Of a stretch of DNA of 8,405 nt, positions 3,976-8,405 are shown piece after piece. The notes beneath the pieces were generated by a model. It saw only the letters and a program-made list of their open reading frames with translations. It did no database searches and was not told the origin of the DNA. This stretch comes from a virus (Duplodnaviria > Heunggongvirae > Uroviricota > Caudoviricetes). The first letter of the stretch is position 1. Every line of letters begins with the position of its first letter. Location: the IMG/VR virus record IMGVR_UViG_3300015179_000040; one strand, 5' to 3'. Made by a program: the position numbers and the translations under genes.

Positions 3976-4179
3976 TTACGGCGCTGTTTTTAATCCTGCC
4001 GGGATTTCGTTATTGTCCATGTGAATAACTTTATCGACCGGATAACAGTTGCCGGGAATTTTCTGTTCCGCTGCGGCAGCCATGCATTCTTTCATTGAGT
4101 TGTACATGCCGGTGATTGCATCAAGCGACTCACCAGTATTGAGATGTACAGTCAGAATGAGTACGAATAATGTGTTCAT
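3976..4179 (-). CDS. ydfD: YdfD-like small membrane protein (DUF1482-type; reported lysis protein in Qin)
   Basis: 67 aa from the ATG at 4179..4177 (MNTLFVLILTVHLNTGESLDAITGMYNSMKECMAAAAEQKIPGNCYPVDKV...). Hydrophobic N-terminus. Its ATG overlaps the dicB TGA stop (ATGA), indicating translational coupling. Sits in the same position relative to dicB as K-12 ydfD. The ORF track starts it at an upstream GTG (4185). Confidence 0.7.
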   Translation of the reverse strand: MNTLFVLILTVHLNTGESLDAITGMYNSMKECMAAAAEQKIPGNCYPVDKVIHMDNNEIPAGLKTAP

Positions 4180-4364
4180 CGCCACTCTCCGAAAATACCG
4201 AGTTTAAGAAGGGCAATTCTGGAGAGTATGGAATTGTCATTCAGCAGGTAGGGTTCATATTTTCTCATATTGATTGCATCCTCGGTGAAATCCCTGTTAC
4301 TGAGCAGAACACCAATATTAAAGCACCCGTCAGACGTATTAACGTTTGGTAGTGACGTTTCCAT
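4176..4364 (-). CDS. dicB: DicB-family cell division inhibitor (MinC-activating, FtsZ-ring inhibitor)
   Basis: 62-aa ORF METSLPNVNTSDGCFNIGVLLSNRDFTEDAINMRKYE... matches my memory of the E. coli DicB N-terminal signature (LPNVNTSEGCFEIGV...FTEDAIN.RK). SD GAGGA 8 nt upstream, overlapping the rha stop codon. Confidence 0.85.
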   Translation of the reverse strand: METSLPNVNTSDGCFNIGVLLSNRDFTEDAINMRKYEPYLLNDNSILSRIALLKLGIFGEWR

Positions 4365-4374
4365 TATCGCGTCC

Positions 4375-4932
4375 TCAACAATGAATTTTTAGCAATTGCT
4401 CCACAGTCATATTTTTAATTGCGCTCCGGTTTACAAGAGTCCATCCTTGTTTCTCCAGATAAAACCGGAAGGTATCCAGGGTGCAGACCATTGCGCCGTC
4501 AGGAACGGTTTCAGTGAATTTGATATTGCCGTGTTCGTCGAGACGGATAACCAGGGTGCGTCCGTCCCCGTGAATCATTTTGTCGGGAGACGGGGCGTTA
4601 TTCTGGCGCAGTTCTGCTTCCATGCGGTCGAACTCAGCAATGTATGCCTCTTTAAATGCAGCGGCTTTTTTGCCAGTGAAGCCCATCACCAGGAAAACGA
4701 AGCCGTTTTTGGTGATTTGGTACATTGGGAGTTTGCGCCCGGTTGAGTCGGTGTATTCGCTCGACACAAAATTGTGCTCAGTGAATTTTGCTGAACAGTC
4801 CAGATTGCGAATTTTATCCAACACTCGTTCGTGGCGTTTGCCAAAGAACTCGGCGATCGCAACAGACGTAGTGACAGCGCGACCATTTTCGATGGTTACG
4901 TCAGGGTGAGAAAGGGTAAGGATAGTAGCCAT
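4375..4932 (-). CDS. rha: Rha-family phage regulatory protein (Phage_pRha domain; antirepressor-like)
   Basis: Start chosen at the ATG 4932..4930 (MATILTLSHPDVTIENGRAVTTSVAIAEFFGKRHERVLDKIRNL...YQITKNGFVFLVMGFTGKKAAAFKEAYIAEFDRME), preceded by GGAGG at 8-nt spacing. These motifs are typical of the Rha family. The in-frame upstream extension to 5229 in the ORF track was rejected (see noticed_but_rejected). Confidence 0.75.
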   Translation of the reverse strand: MATILTLSHPDVTIENGRAVTTSVAIAEFFGKRHERVLDKIRNLDCSAKFTEHNFVSSEYTDSTGRKLPMYQITKNGFVFLVMGFTGKKAAAFKEAYIAEFDRMEAELRQNNAPSPDKMIHGDGRTLVIRLDEHGNIKFTETVPDGAMVCTLDTFRFYLEKQGWTLVNRSAIKNMTVEQLLKIHC

Positions 4933-5097
4933 GATGGCAGCCTCCGCGATGAATTTGATTAACTCACCACCGAGGTTTTCCACGACCATAAGGGTGGTGA
5001 GACGTACAGGGGTGGAAATACCGGTCATCACGGAACCCGGCCAGCCTTGCGGCTGCCCTGCACGCCCCACCATAATGCGAATGTGGCTGTGCTTAAC

Positions 5098-5128
5098 GCA
5101 TAAAAAAACCGCCTGAGCGCGGTTATGC
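5098..5128 (-). terminator. Rho-independent terminator upstream of rha, within the operon
   Basis: On the minus strand: GCAUAACCGC-GCUCAG-GCGGUUUUUUUAUGC. A short GC stem with 6-nt loop followed directly by a 7-U tract. The plus strand has no U tract after the stem. Confidence 0.5.
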
Positions 5129-5410
5129 GCCGTGAATGATTTCGGGTTTCCACGCCCGGCACCCGTTTTATGAGGTGCAGGTGCACTATAATTCCACCCG
5201 TTCTGGTTTTCAATAGCTACATTCAACATTTTCTCTACCTTTCATCACCGAAGTGAACTTTGTTGATGCGGTGCCTGGTGCCTCCAGGTGACGTTAACCA
5301 GTTAACAATTAACGTCGGATACAGAGCATTCCCGTTACGCCCGTAAAAGACCGCTTGTTTTAACTGTTCCGCGTGCGCTGAGCCGCATTCACCGCATCAC
5401 AAAATTCACT

Positions 5411-5472
5411 TTAAAAGGGGCGGGTATCATGGGAAAAACAAAACGGATACCCGCCAAAAGGTAATCAACATG
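5411..5472 (-). ncRNA. dicF: DicF-like small RNA (divergent homolog) ending in an intrinsic terminator
   Basis: Minus-strand sequence UGUUGAUUACCUUUUGGCGGGUAUCCGUUUUGUUUUUCCCAUGAUACCCGCCCCUUUUAA has a 10-bp stem GGCGGGUAUC/GAUACCCGCC followed by CCUUUU. It resembles, from memory, E. coli DicF (…UUUGGCGGUAUCAGUUUUACUCC…GCCGCCCUUUUU). Synteny fits: downstream of ydfC-like, upstream of dicB. Ends are approximate; not confirmed by a covariance model. Confidence 0.45.
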
Positions 5473-5795
5473 GGTTGTTGCAGCGGGGTTGTCACTCAGG
5501 CGTATGGTCAACCTGACAACCCGGTGGACATTTGCGAGGAACGGAGAACCCCCGCCATACTTACCGCCGCGCCATTTCGCGGAGTGCCACAACCGGAAGC
5601 GCACGGTCGACGAAAATTTAACGACAGGCTATCTATGAACCAGCAACCTCGCCGTGCGCTTTCGCGTTATGCTCTGACTTTTCAGAGAAATATCCTTTCA
5701 GTAAACTGTCAGTGCCGGATGCTCACCCGTGTCCGGCGCACACACTCCACCTCACCCGTGGAGAACTCCTTAATTACCAACCCTCAGGAGGGTGA

Positions 5796-6029
5796 ATGTT
5801 AAAATCAACGCTTATTGCTAAATGCCTTTATCAAAATCGCATGGTAAGCAGCATTTCAATAGGCGAGTCTGCAGTTAAAAGTATTTTCGAAGAGTACTTT
5901 CCCGGGCATGATTTTAATAAATGGAATACCAAATTACCGCCAGCAGTTTCAACGCGTATTCTGAAAGCAACTGAAAGAGCAAGTACAATTCGCGTTAACT
6001 ATTTCATTAAAGATTTGTGGGATCTTTGA
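5796..6029 (+). CDS. Hypothetical 77-aa protein, opposite strand to the operon, convergent with and overlapping the 3' end of the 135-aa ORF
   Basis: ORF with AGGAGG-type SD 4-5 nt before the ATG at 5796. Protein-like composition (MLKSTLIAKCLYQNRMVSSISIGESAVKSIFEEYFPGHDFNKWNTKLPP...). No homolog recognised. Could be a chance ORF in an AT-rich stretch. Confidence 0.3.
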   Translation: MLKSTLIAKCLYQNRMVSSISIGESAVKSIFEEYFPGHDFNKWNTKLPPAVSTRILKATERASTIRVNYFIKDLWDL

Positions 6030-6414
6030 TATCCACAGAGCCTAAAGTATGTGCATATGGATGTGCTGTTGTGCGCCCTCGCAGATTTGCATCATTTTCT
6101 AAATTCACTGAACGAAACAGGGCATCAACAAGGCTCTGTACAATGCAAAGGCAATCGAAGACTGTCGCCGTTTCTGTTTTGATTGATGAAAGAACATGGC
6201 CATTCACGCAAACAGAAATTACCCGTTTATTAACATCGCTTTCCTGCTTTTGATTATCAGAACCATATAGCCCTGAAAAAGCATTGCGCACATTACGAAC
6301 CATATTATCGATGGTTTCTTTTTTGGTGTATGCCGGGTCAATTTTCACCAGACTATCACCGAGTGTCGTTGCAGCAATTATCTGGATTTCTTTTGGTAAA
6401 TCTTTAAATTCCAT
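6007..6414 (-). CDS. Hypothetical 135-aa protein of unknown function, in operon orientation between ydfC-like and the dicF-like RNA
   Basis: ORF with SD GAGG 6 nt upstream of the ATG at 6414, starting 22 nt after the ydfC-like stop. AT-rich codon usage distinct from the neighbouring GC-rich stretch. No family recognised from memory. Confidence 0.65.
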   Translation of the reverse strand: MEFKDLPKEIQIIAATTLGDSLVKIDPAYTKKETIDNMVRNVRNAFSGLYGSDNQKQESDVNKRVISVCVNGHVLSSIKTETATVFDCLCIVQSLVDALFRSVNLENDANLRGRTTAHPYAHTLGSVDIKDPTNL

Positions 6415-6436
6415 TATTAGCCTCGTTGGTTAACCA

Positions 6437-6970: not shown

Positions 6971-7035
6971 GTTGACCTCATTTCCCCTTAACGCCGGGTG
7001 GCGGAACTAAAACCTACAGCGCCGTGCTGTTCTTG

Positions 7036-7075
7036 ATAGAAATATTAGTAACGCGGATATTTTAAGTCAATAGTA
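7036..7075 (-). promoter_or_regulatory. Sigma-70 promoter of the ydfA-dicB-type operon with embedded operator-like motif
   Basis: Minus strand reads TTGACT-(17 nt)-TAATAT (-35 at plus coords 7065-7070, -10 at 7042-7047), about 65 nt upstream of the ydfA-like ATG. Contains the 9-mer AAATATTAG, which recurs at 7128-7136 and inverted at 7756-7764. Confidence 0.55.
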
Positions 7076-7167
7076 TGGCGTATGATATTTTTGATTTGGT
7101 AACTATGTAAATGTTTTTTCAAGGGAAAAATATTAGTTATACAGCTGATTTGCAGAAGTTATGGCAC

Positions 7168-7197
7168 AAAAAAACCGACTAAGACGTCGGTTTTTTT
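7168..7197. terminator. Bidirectional rho-independent terminator downstream of the repressor gene
   Basis: A7-CCGAC-UAAGAC-GUCGG-U7: GC stem flanked by complementary A and U tracts, so it can terminate on either strand. Lies 27 nt after the repressor stop. Confidence 0.6.
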
Positions 7198-7223
7198 GTT
7201 GTGGATGGGGTAGTGAGCGGTGG

Positions 7224-7685
7224 CTACTGGTTACGTTTCTTTAGTGCCAGCATGTTCTCGAAGGCTTCCTCGTAGAGCTTGTTTAGTCCACGTAGCTGGT
7301 TAAGGAGTTTGGCTTTTTCTGACGCAGGTAGAATCTCGAAGAGGTTAAGTAACTCTGCCTGTTCTTCATTGACCAGCCTCCATCCTTTGCCTGAAAAGTT
7401 ATCATCATAAGTATCTGATGATCTTACATAATTCATTAAGTCTTTAAGGTCTTCTCGAATGTCCTCTGGTTTTACCTTTAACAGAGCCGCAAATTTTAGC
7501 GCAGCGTCGGTATTTACCGGTATCTTGCCGTTCAGATACTGGCTAACGGTGCCTTGAGATTCGAATCCCAACAACTCAGCCGCCAGCTCTTGAGTCAGCT
7601 TCAGCTCTTTTTTTCTTGCATTCCATGCGGCTTTTAAATTCTTGCTCGCTTCTGGAGTTGCAATCACTTCGCGTGTTTTTTTCAT
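7224..7685 (-). CDS. DicA-like HTH (XRE-family) prophage repressor, no LexA/S24 autocleavage domain
   Basis: 153-aa ORF with HTH LTQELAAELLGFESQGTVSQYLNG and C-terminal LNLFEILPASEKAKLLNQLRGLNKLYEEAFENMLALKK, resembling the DicA C-terminus (LELFNALPESEQ...FNKLFEELLKARQ) from memory. Divergent from the Cro-like gene. No recognisable SD before the ATG. Confidence 0.75.
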   Translation of the reverse strand: MKKTREVIATPEASKNLKAAWNARKKELKLTQELAAELLGFESQGTVSQYLNGKIPVNTDAALKFAALLKVKPEDIREDLKDLMNYVRSSDTYDDNFSGKGWRLVNEEQAELLNLFEILPASEKAKLLNQLRGLNKLYEEAFENMLALKKRNQ

Positions 7686-7691
7686 ACATAG

Positions 7692-7719
7692 AGTTTATTT
7701 GTTTTACCAATATTATCAA
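7692..7719 (-). promoter_or_regulatory. Candidate repressor promoter (PRM-like); possibly leaderless transcript
   Basis: Minus strand TTGATA-(16 nt)-TAAACT ending 6 nt before the ATG, which would place the transcription start at or next to the start codon. No SD present. Weak -10, inference only. Confidence 0.35.
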
Positions 7720-7733
7720 AGATAGTCTGGCTA

Positions 7734-7762
7734 TTGATCTTTAAAATTAGCGGGGCTAATAT
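7734..7762 (+). promoter_or_regulatory. Promoter of the ydaS/ydaT-like operon with palindromic operator in the spacer
   Basis: TTGATC-(17 nt)-TAATAT on the plus strand. The palindrome ATTAGC-GGG-GCTAAT (7746-7760) spans the spacer and -10. The whole module is near-identical to the operon promoter at 7036-7075 (TTGAYY-TWWAAAWW-CSCG-CTAATATTT). Confidence 0.55.
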
Positions 7763-7792
7763 TTGCTCGAGGCATAACGTAGAAGGTTGGCT

Positions 7793-8068
7793 ATGAACTT
7801 AAGAGACTATTTAAAAGAGAAACATATCACCCAGCTACAGTTTGGGAAGCTAACGGGTTTATCTCAGGTGCATGTAAGTCGAGTGCTGGGAGGCTATGAA
7901 AGATTCAGCCCTGAAAAAGCATTACGTGTTGCTGAAGTAACGAATTTCGAGGTTACACCTCATGAACTCCGGCCTGATATTTACCCGAATCCAACCGACG
8001 GCTTACCTGTTGGATTCAAGGCTAACACACCAAATGCATCGGAGTTGATTCATGAAAATCAGGCATGA
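7793..8068 (+). CDS. YdaS-family Cro-like HTH regulator
   Basis: 91 aa from the ATG at 7793 (SD GAAGG 6 nt upstream): MNLRDYLKEKHITQLQFGKLTGLSQVHVSRVLGGYERFSPEKALRVAEVTNFEVTPHELRPDIYP. HTH plus the HELRPD motif I associate with Cro-like YdaS proteins. Occupies the dicC/cro position. The ORF track starts at an upstream TTG (7787). Confidence 0.65.
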   Translation: MNLRDYLKEKHITQLQFGKLTGLSQVHVSRVLGGYERFSPEKALRVAEVTNFEVTPHELRPDIYPNPTDGLPVGFKANTPNASELIHENQA

Positions 8069-8405
8069 GCACATCCGCATGGCGATGAATGCCTGGGCGC
8101 ATCCGGACGGTGAAAAAGTTCCGGCAGCTGAAATAACCCGGGCTTATTTTGAGCTTGGTATGACGTTCCCGGAATTATATGACGACAGCCATCCGGAAGC
8201 CCTGGCTCGCAATACCCAGAAAATTTTCCGCTGGGTGGAGAAAGACACTCCTGATGCGGTTAAAAAAATTCAGGCGTTGTTACCAGCGATCGAAAAAGCA
8301 ATGCCGCCTCTGCTGGTGGCCCGAATGCGCAGCCACAGTTCAGCTTATTTTCGGGAGCTGGTGGAGACGCGGGAACGACTGGTGAGAGACGCTGATGATT
8401 TTGTC
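8052..8405 (+). CDS. YdaT-like protein, 5' partial (runs off the window end)
   Basis: Open frame from the ATG at 8052 with no stop to 8405 (MKIRHEHIRMAMNAWAHPDGEKVPAAEITRAYFELGMTFPELYDD...KIQALLPAIEKAMPP...). The start overlaps the end of the YdaS-like gene by 17 nt. MKI(K/R)HEHI is the N-terminus I recall for Rac YdaT. Missing from the ORF track because no stop is in the window. Confidence 0.6.
   Translation, partial: MKIRHEHIRMAMNAWAHPDGEKVPAAEITRAYFELGMTFPELYDDSHPEALARNTQKIFRWVEKDTPDAVKKIQALLPAIEKAMPPLLVARMRSHSSAYFRELVETRERLVRDADDFV

Follow-up and report, generated by a model that had tools for sequence, protein, structure and literature searches.

Cro-like and CII-like regulators opposite a DicA/PaaR2-type repressor in lambdoid prophage DNA of Escherichia coli

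The viral DNA record IMGVR_UViG_3300015179_000040 (IMG/VR; Caudoviricetes), whose whole length of 8,405 nucleotides (nt) is called the window here, contains at positions 6985-8405 what is very probably the lysis/lysogeny immunity region of a lambdoid Escherichia coli prophage of the Rac/Qin/CP-933P group. The stretch represents an ordinary type of switch, in which a repressor of the DicA/PaaR2 type faces Cro-like and CII-like regulators. It is also already known: the identical cassette has been deposited as part of phage Rac-SA53, it is annotated in RefSeq and close relatives have been characterised experimentally. The window is 99.9-100% identical to complete E. coli genomes, in which the three genes carry the RefSeq labels 'helix-turn-helix domain-containing protein', 'YdaS family helix-turn-helix protein' and 'toxin YdaT family protein'. 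A lambdoid prophage next to ompW contains the region in E. coli 042. The left part of this prophage consists, in order, of integrase, excisionase, exonuclease, DUF1482, dicB, a Rha-family gene, ydfC, ydfB, a ydfA-like gene and the repressor. Divergent from the repressor, the right part comprises ydaS, ydaT, a DnaT-like O gene, a P gene and the genes beyond.

By homology and analogy with the characterised relatives, the working of the switch can be outlined as follows. The repressor would bind AATATT-centred operators at OR (7706-7763) and OL (7041-7137), and this binding would silence both PR, which serves ydaS, ydaT and the replication genes, and PL, which serves the operon running from ydfABC to dicB. 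The repressor itself would be made from a weak PRM-type promoter, whose transcript would begin with the A of the repressor AUG and thus be leaderless. The YdaS-family protein encoded on the plus strand would act as the equivalent of Cro, and YdaT as that of CII, namely as a tetrameric activator with a POU-type helix-turn-helix (HTH) that would bind to a YdaT-box lying over its own start codon and would stimulate a leftward PRE-like promoter for establishing repressor synthesis.

Genes of the immunity region

An earlier note on this DNA, made from the letters alone, had described three genes at the right-hand end of the window, and all three are present in the list of open reading frames (ORFs), the sequence, Pfam and RefSeq:

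7224-7685, minus strand: predicted CI-equivalent repressor of 153 residues; N-terminal domain a lambda-CI-like HTH, C-terminal domain helical and DicA/PaaR2-like
7793-8068, plus strand: predicted Cro-equivalent HTH protein of the YdaS family, 91 residues, with the Shine-Dalgarno (SD) sequence AAGG; labelled 'dicC' in Rac-SA53
8052-8405, plus strand: YdaT, predicted CII-equivalent activator; first 118 of 141 codons, the gene being cut by the window end

The repressor matched only HTH_3 (38.6 bits) and HTH_31 in Pfam, and the same search gave no match to S24 (PF00717). Because S24 is lacking, RecA-stimulated self-cleavage cannot remove this repressor. In a comparison by hhalign, with a profile of nine members of the repressor family as query, the family aligned end to end with DicA (94.9% probability, E 4.7e-8) and also matched PaaR2 of CP-933P (89.6% probability, E 1.9e-6). 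The earlier description of a DicA-like repressor without S24 is hence sound at the level of architecture (Pfam, hhalign), although the protein is not a DicA orthologue: against the NCBIfam DicA model (NF007257) it scores 35.1 bits (E 9.9e-9), below the cut-off of 101, with an alignment covering profile positions 7-132 of 135. Kinship with RacR was considered and rejected, the hhalign probability being 1% and BLASTP giving no match.

The N-terminal domain of the repressor aligns with that of lambda CI in a search of PDB sequences (E 2.6e-4), and AlphaFold2 models the HTH with confidence, the predicted local distance difference test (pLDDT) being 80-91 at residues 10-80. In a search of solved structures with the full repressor, the repressor matches were to lambda CI N-terminal domains only; a full-length PaaR2 structure was not found, its deposits being N-terminal domains only. 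The C-terminal domain is marked by the motif ELLxLFxxLPxxE(Q), in which the columns L112, L113, F116, P120 and E123 show no variation, DicA and PaaR2 being among the sequences compared. Thus constituted, with an HTH of the XRE/Cro-C1 type and a short helical C-terminus replacing S24, the protein is also encoded at the position of cI, with a divergent cro-like gene on one side and, downstream, a PL-type operon with cell-division inhibitors. Within the HTH (residues 14-89), the nearest relatives outside the family, at 50-60% identity, are CI repressors that do carry S24, among them the cI of Stx2a-converting phages and the proteins P0023 and P0025-P0028. To judge from the sequence, the repressor itself looks like a domain shuffle, joining a CI-type HTH to a C-terminal domain of the DicA/PaaR2 type.

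The Cro-like gene begins after a gap of 107 bp from the repressor, as the first gene of the rightward operon. Its product scores 30.9 bits against the Pfam family YdaS_toxin (PF15943; cut-off 30) and also passes for HTH_3 (29.3 bits), shares 32% identity with K-12 YdaS across 50 residues and belongs to PHROG 35 (E 2e-25). There is in addition a weak match (E 0.005) to PDB 8c7k, 'antirepressor Cro'; the part of 8c7k in the alignment agrees in sequence with the YdaS translation of Sp12/CP-933P. Kinship with DicC, as implied by the label in Rac-SA53, was rejected, similarity being undetectable by BLASTP.

YdaT can be assigned unambiguously from its sequence, with 39.1 bits for the Pfam family YdaT_toxin (PF06254; cut-off 21) and a match to PHROG 163, 'CII-like transcriptional activator', at E 2.5e-45. 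For residues beyond 118 the identical gene of E. coli 042 was used, where the full 141 residues are encoded (L001 10053-10478). Homology extends over the full length, including the C-terminal tetramerisation helix, and in end-to-end alignment the identity is about 97% with PDB 3C4R and, for the YdaT of CP-933P (8BT1), about 85%. The structure of this 85-97% identical protein has been shown to be a DNA-binding POU/HTH tetramer (PMC9986795). The profile searches that the earlier note had proposed therefore confirm both family assignments, marginally for YdaS, and its picture of a YdaS-like Cro with an overlapping YdaT-like gene agrees with Pfam, PHROG and RefSeq.

The overlap of ydaS and ydaT amounts to 17 nt (8052-8068), as in RefSeq, and is incidental, to judge from sequence comparison. 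The stop codon TAG that ends the 82-residue Cro-like protein of Rac-SA53 is replaced in the window by TCG (region 8035-8068), and the reading frame therefore extends through the linker around the YdaT-box, gaining nine residues (SELIHENQA) to reach 91. The gene encodes 82 residues in Hafnia, Serratia and the locus L012, as it does in Rac-SA53. The unrelated Cro-like protein of Sp11 also ends in IHENQA, because the linker is read there in the same frame.

Promoters, operators and the start of the repressor gene

The elements to which control of the switch may be ascribed are these:

7734-7762, plus strand: PR-like promoter TTGATC-17-TAATAT, read from the sequence and homologous to PL; serves the ydaS-ydaT-replication operon
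7042-7070, minus strand: PL-like promoter TTGACT-17-TAATAT, from a promoter scan; reads leftward into ydfA/ydfB/ydfC ... dicB
7692-7719, minus strand: candidate PRM-like promoter TTGATA-16-TAAACT, from a promoter scan
7706-7763, plus strand: OR region, with candidate cores ACCAATATT at 7706-7714 (inside PRM) and GCTAATATT at 7755-7763 (over the -10 of PR)
7041-7137, minus strand: OL region, where the candidate core ACTAATATT stands twice without mismatch, at 7041-7049 and 7129-7137, in direct repeat
7166-7199, no strand assigned: terminator, an inverted repeat with perfect arms of 14 bp between runs of A and T (repeat search, RNA fold)
8045-8062, plus strand: YdaT-box TTGATTCATGAAAATCAG, with 11 of 12 matches to TTGATT-N6-AATCAA and the ydaT ATG in the spacer

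The PR and PL regions are homologous inverted copies of each other, both with TAATAT as the -10 (repeat search, alignment), and the TTGATC of PR is conserved in Hafnia and L012. Across OL and OR the 9-mer ACYAATATT occurs as three exact copies and one with a single mismatch (at 7041, 7129, 7706 and 7755), and the window holds one extra exact copy, at 4311-4319 inside dicB. A palindromic operator, AAATAT-N10/11-ATATTT, was weighed against this 9-mer, and only the 9-mer core is reported as a candidate. The position of the candidate core inside PRM is conserved in diverged homologues. Between OL and the repressor gene, the terminator hairpin (-20.7 kcal/mol, z = -6.8 by RNA fold) is of the intrinsic kind, as judged from its sequence, ending the repressor transcript before PL, and is probably bidirectional. 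A small terminator-like hairpin, ACAGCACGGCGCTGT, with a T-rich tail, lies at 7016-7030 on the minus strand within the conserved cassette, in the predicted PL leader between PL (transcription start near 7035) and the start of the ydfA-like gene (6970). It could be an attenuator or a target of antitermination.

The YdaT-box would be expected by chance 0.09 times per window at no more than one mismatch, and it agrees in position and sequence with those of CP-933P and Rac. The corresponding OM site of CP-933P and the YdaT-box of Rac have been DNase-footprinted (PMC9986795 and PMC11879457, respectively). YdaT has been shown to activate a reverse, PRE-like promoter both in CP-933P (PMC8630535) and in Rac (PMC11879457), and the YdaTs of these two prophages cross-activate (PMC11879457). 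By analogy, binding of the box and activation of a PRE-like promoter would be expected of the YdaT in the window.

With regard to the start of the repressor gene, its strand reads TTGATA-16-TAAACT-CTATGT-ATG. Exactly 6 nt separate the -10 hexamer from the A of the ATG (7685), and a transcript start at the start codon is therefore predicted. No SD pairing was found in the 20 nt before the ATG, which agrees with the earlier note that the gene lacks an SD. A hexamer is found at the identical distance in the homologues of Hafnia (TAAAAT), Serratia (TAGAAT) and L012 (TAGAAT), so that T1, A2, A4 and T6 (TAnAnT) are invariant in four lineages amid flanking bases that vary. No SD:anti-SD duplex precedes the repressor ATG in four of five sequences, a GAGGT abutting the ATG in Serratia, and every Cro-like gene compared has an SD. 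PaaR2, which shares the geometry (GATAAT-6 nt-ATG), has been shown to be leaderless by rapid amplification of 5' cDNA ends, N-terminal sequencing and mass spectrometry (PMC8630535). The suggestion that the repressor may be leaderless is thus backed by the conserved -10 spacing, the missing SD and the PaaR2 precedent; for the present cassette, leaderless expression as predicted from sequence and analogy is well supported, and it is not new in kind.

The alternative is that the repressor mRNA has a leader, either from an upstream promoter that gives an SD-less leader of about 20 nt, or in that the gene is read from a PRE-type transcript only. A GATAAT hexamer lying 26 nt upstream of the ATG (7717-7712) could serve as the -10 of such a promoter, and the homologues do not share the -35 proposed for leaderless expression. 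However, the alternative GATAAT is itself not conserved, whereas the TAnAnT exactly 6 nt before the ATG is, and the same geometry is leaderless by experiment in PaaR2. A leadered repressor transcript is accordingly considered unlikely.

Certain points weigh against the proposed working of the switch. The poor conservation of the PRM -35 is one of these, as is the margin by which the Cro-like protein barely exceeds the Pfam cut-off for YdaS. The operator motif was picked post hoc and is a candidate core only, and the spacing of its copies is unequal (49 bp in OR versus 88 bp in OL). The C-terminus of the repressor is helical in the AlphaFold2 model, which was made for a monomer, and of low confidence; low confidence would be expected of an oligomerisation domain that is modelled in this way. 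Finally, the promoter scan gave no convincing leftward -10 of a PRE-like promoter beside the YdaT-box. Activator-dependent promoters are expected to be weak.

Exchange of the cassette and kinship with known switches

Pairwise alignment with phage Rac-SA53 (KU052037) delimits the following block:

6985-8078, no strand assigned: immunity cassette, to which the identity of about 98-99% with Rac-SA53 is limited

Rac-SA53, reportedly the LT-II prophage described by Jobling, carries genes named dicA, dicC and ydaT, the dicA product being 99.3% identical to the repressor of the window. The shared block contains PL/OL, the terminator, the repressor gene, OR, the Cro-like gene and the first 26 nt of ydaT, with the YdaT-box. 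Both flanks are unrelated or strongly diverged. On the left side, Qin-type ydfA/B/C ... dicB follow in the window and a Rac-type arm (rac11 ... kilR-recET) in Rac-SA53; on the right side, YdaT is of the CP-933P type in the window and of the K-12 Rac type in Rac-SA53. The cassette was found in 180 of 5426 complete E. coli genomes and is at least 99% identical in 142 genomes, and it occurs in two different phage backbones; beyond it, the continuation seen in the window is present in 138 of the 180. The block is an exchangeable immunity module of approximately 1.1 kb, in the classical lambdoid pattern.

The right joint of the cassette lies just past the YdaT-box linker GGAGTTGATTCATGAAAATCA(A/G)GCATGA(A/G)CACATC. 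Nearly the whole of this linker is common to the window, Rac-SA53 and Sp12, while K-12 Rac and Sp11 keep the box and the downstream part from GATTCATG on and differ upstream. It may be, although the suggestion is a doubtful one (and was judged jointly with that on the Rha gene below), that the linker doubles as a recombination joint at which cassettes are swapped among backbones of the Rac, Qin and CP-933P types.

Outside E. coli, homologues of the repressor with 58-71% identity are found in Hafnia alvei, Serratia and metagenomic contigs, where they lie 106 bp from an 82-residue Cro-like gene, with YdaT and replication genes following. Since the repressor, the Cro-like gene and YdaT are kept together in these homologues, the triad is old and syntenic, and not a recent chimera.

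Among the E. coli prophages of this group many, such as Rac, Qin and CP-933P, are defective, and the window alone cannot prove that its prophage is complete, which raises the question of whether the cassette has no working switch and is left over, in decay, from a cryptic prophage, its genes persisting by hitch-hiking only. This is very unlikely. All three ORFs are intact, the near identity of the cassette extends over 142 genomes and two phage backbones, and the promoter and operator elements are conserved in spite of the divergence of the homologous proteins. Moreover, the prophage of E. coli 042 retains integrase, excisionase and replication genes, and even the switches of the cryptic CP-933P and Rac have been shown to be functional (PMC8630535, PMC11879457).

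The nearest dissected relative of the switch is that of CP-933P/Sp12 in E. coli O157:H7, which has been resolved into equivalents of CI, Cro and CII (Jurenas et al. 2021, PMC8630535; Prolic-Kalinsek et al. 2023, PMC9986795). There, too, a repressor is divergent from ydaS-ydaT and the replication genes that follow, with dicB in the left operon. PaaR2, like the repressor of the window, lacks S24 and has the C-terminal ELLxxFxxxPxxEQ domain and the -10/6 nt/ATG geometry of leaderless expression, and the two YdaTs (about 85% identical) are served by YdaT-boxes that are alike in sequence and position. However, the repressors are only about 19% and the Cro-like proteins about 30% identical, and immunity specificity and operators therefore differ, with AATATT-centred operators in the window and GTTTAGTAA repeats in CP-933P. 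CP-933P also has the paaA2-parE2 toxin-antitoxin pair after the repressor, where the window has the terminator, and its ydaS and ydaT overlap by 4 nt as against 17.

In Qin of K-12, a DicA-type repressor gene read towards ydfA-ydfB-ydfC ... dicB is likewise divergent from a Cro-like gene, dicC, which overlaps the YdaT-homologous ydfX by 17 nt. DicA is about 25-28% identical to the repressor of the window, DicC belongs to the P22_Cro family and not to YdaS, and dicF lies between ydfC and dicB, where the window has an isrK/C4/Rha module. YdfX is 36% identical to the YdaT of the window over 95 residues, its Pfam YdaT match being sub-threshold, and has been described as the Qin homologue of YdaT, as DicC has been of Rac YdaS (PMC11879457). 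At the dicC-ydfX junction (L003 4347-4851), YdfX is a truncated protein of 96 residues without the tetramerisation helix, and a degenerate YdaT-box (TTGAACAATGAAAATCAC) is kept. In Sp11, the Cro-like and YdaT genes overlap by 17 nt beside the remnant of a repressor gene. The remnant, annotated 'phage repressor protein' (ECs_2209, L005 1600-1938), encodes 112 residues without an HTH domain; from its sequence it appears to be the C-terminal S24-like half of a CI, and hence a truncated repressor beside an intact Cro-like/YdaT pair.

The racR-ydaS-ydaT region of K-12 Rac has the same switch architecture, the same YdaS and YdaT families and a YdaT-box spanning the ydaT ATG (PMC11879457), but RacR is unrelated, and YdaS and YdaT are each about 32% identical to those of the window. 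With lambda itself are shared the cI/cro/cII logic, a CI-like N-terminal domain, a leaderless cI mRNA from PRM, and OL/PL and OR/PR as inverted homologous copies. Unlike lambda CI, the repressor of the window is without S24 autocleavage, and its Cro and CII equivalents are of other sequence families, this type of CII equivalent recognising an inverted repeat and lambda CII a direct one (PMC9986795).

It is against these systems that the earlier note has to be set, which had read the region as a novel hybrid of a Qin-type repressor and a Rac-type toxic ydaS-ydaT pair, with the repressor as an essential transcriptional 'antidote' to DicB/DicF and YdaS/YdaT; that reading is extremely improbable. 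RacR and DicA have been reported to be essential in K-12 and ectopic expression of YdaS/YdaT to be toxic (PMC5700373, PMC5700377), dicB is present downstream, and Pfam still names both families 'toxin'. However, the toxin papers have been answered by Jobling (PMC5917428), and the view of YdaS/YdaT as a toxin-antitoxin or toxin pair has been rejected for homologues (PMC5917428, PMC8630535, PMC11879457), both proteins being transcription factors equivalent to Cro and CII (PMC8630535, PMC9986795, PMC11879457, PMC5917428; PHROG); no toxicity was seen for YdaT of CP-933P (PMC8630535). By analogy, YdaS and YdaT of the window are Cro and CII equivalents and not toxins. Nor is a hybrid of Rac and Qin supported, as the layout of repressor, Cro-like gene and YdaT is normal for the group and recurs in Qin, CP-933P/Sp12, Sp11 and the distant homologues, and the repressor and Cro-like gene move as one cassette, as the alignment with Rac-SA53 indicates. 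The account of Qin as DicA facing DicC had left out YdfX. As for DicB/DicF, dicB is present in the window, but for DicF an Rfam search gave no match, whether with gathering scores or with E<=1 as the limit. Conditional essentiality in the lysogen is common to all prophage repressors, and nothing marks the present one out.

The left operon and the meaning of the region

Further to the left, the operon that PL would serve contains the following:

4176-4364, minus strand: dicB (Pfam, NCBIfam)
4990-5077, minus strand: C4 antisense RNA (Rfam, 81.9 bits)
5102-5178, minus strand: IsrK (Rfam, 67.7 bits)
5139-5191, minus strand: c4-a1b1 target (weak Rfam match)

These RNA matches fall in the interval 4365-6436, which corresponds to the ydfC-dicB/dicF interval of Qin. 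Besides the IsrK/C4/Rha module, it comprises a 135-residue ORF with no family match (6007-6414, minus strand) and a stretch of about 600 bp in which no ORF is convincing and which includes a weak STnc100-like match (5259-5406, minus strand). The 284-residue ORF annotated in RefSeq as 'Rha family phage regulatory protein' (4375-5229, minus strand) overlaps the C4 and IsrK matches on the same strand. Its N-terminal 100 or so codons, which give a Pfam 'Phage_ASH' match, are therefore probably RNA genes, the real start probably being an internal Met near 4936 (MATILTL...). In sequence, the C4/IsrK/Rha arrangement resembles a P1 immI-like / Gifsy-1 IsrK-like module, and it counts as a candidate antirepressor system.

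It is conceivable, at the same low joint probability as for the recombination joint, that the non-cleavable repressor is inactivated by the Rha-family protein (~4375-4936, minus strand), the expression of which would be gated by the P1-immI-like C4/IsrK. Control by LexA as part of the SOS response was considered and is unsupported: a search of the window for the LexA box CTGT-N8-ACAG gave only one-mismatch matches at chance level, none of them near the switch or the Rha gene. PaaR2 has been reported to be unresponsive to mitomycin C. If the suggestion on Rha were true, Rha/C4/IsrK would form part of a two-tier immunity circuit, of lambda type and P1 type, in a lambdoid prophage.

As a discovery the region carries little weight, since it is a canonical CI/Cro/CII-type switch of the Rac/Qin/CP-933P prophages, the regulatory logic of which, including leaderless translation of the repressor, has been demonstrated in a sister system. 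It does show that the 'toxin' names given to YdaS and YdaT in Pfam and RefSeq are not to be taken as function, and that 'DicA/DicC' and 'RacR/YdaS/YdaT' are labels of position in one common architecture and not two architectures that could be hybridised. To the known switches of the group the cassette adds one more immunity specificity, with clean predicted promoters and operators, and it offers a point of comparison for work on PaaR2 and DicA.

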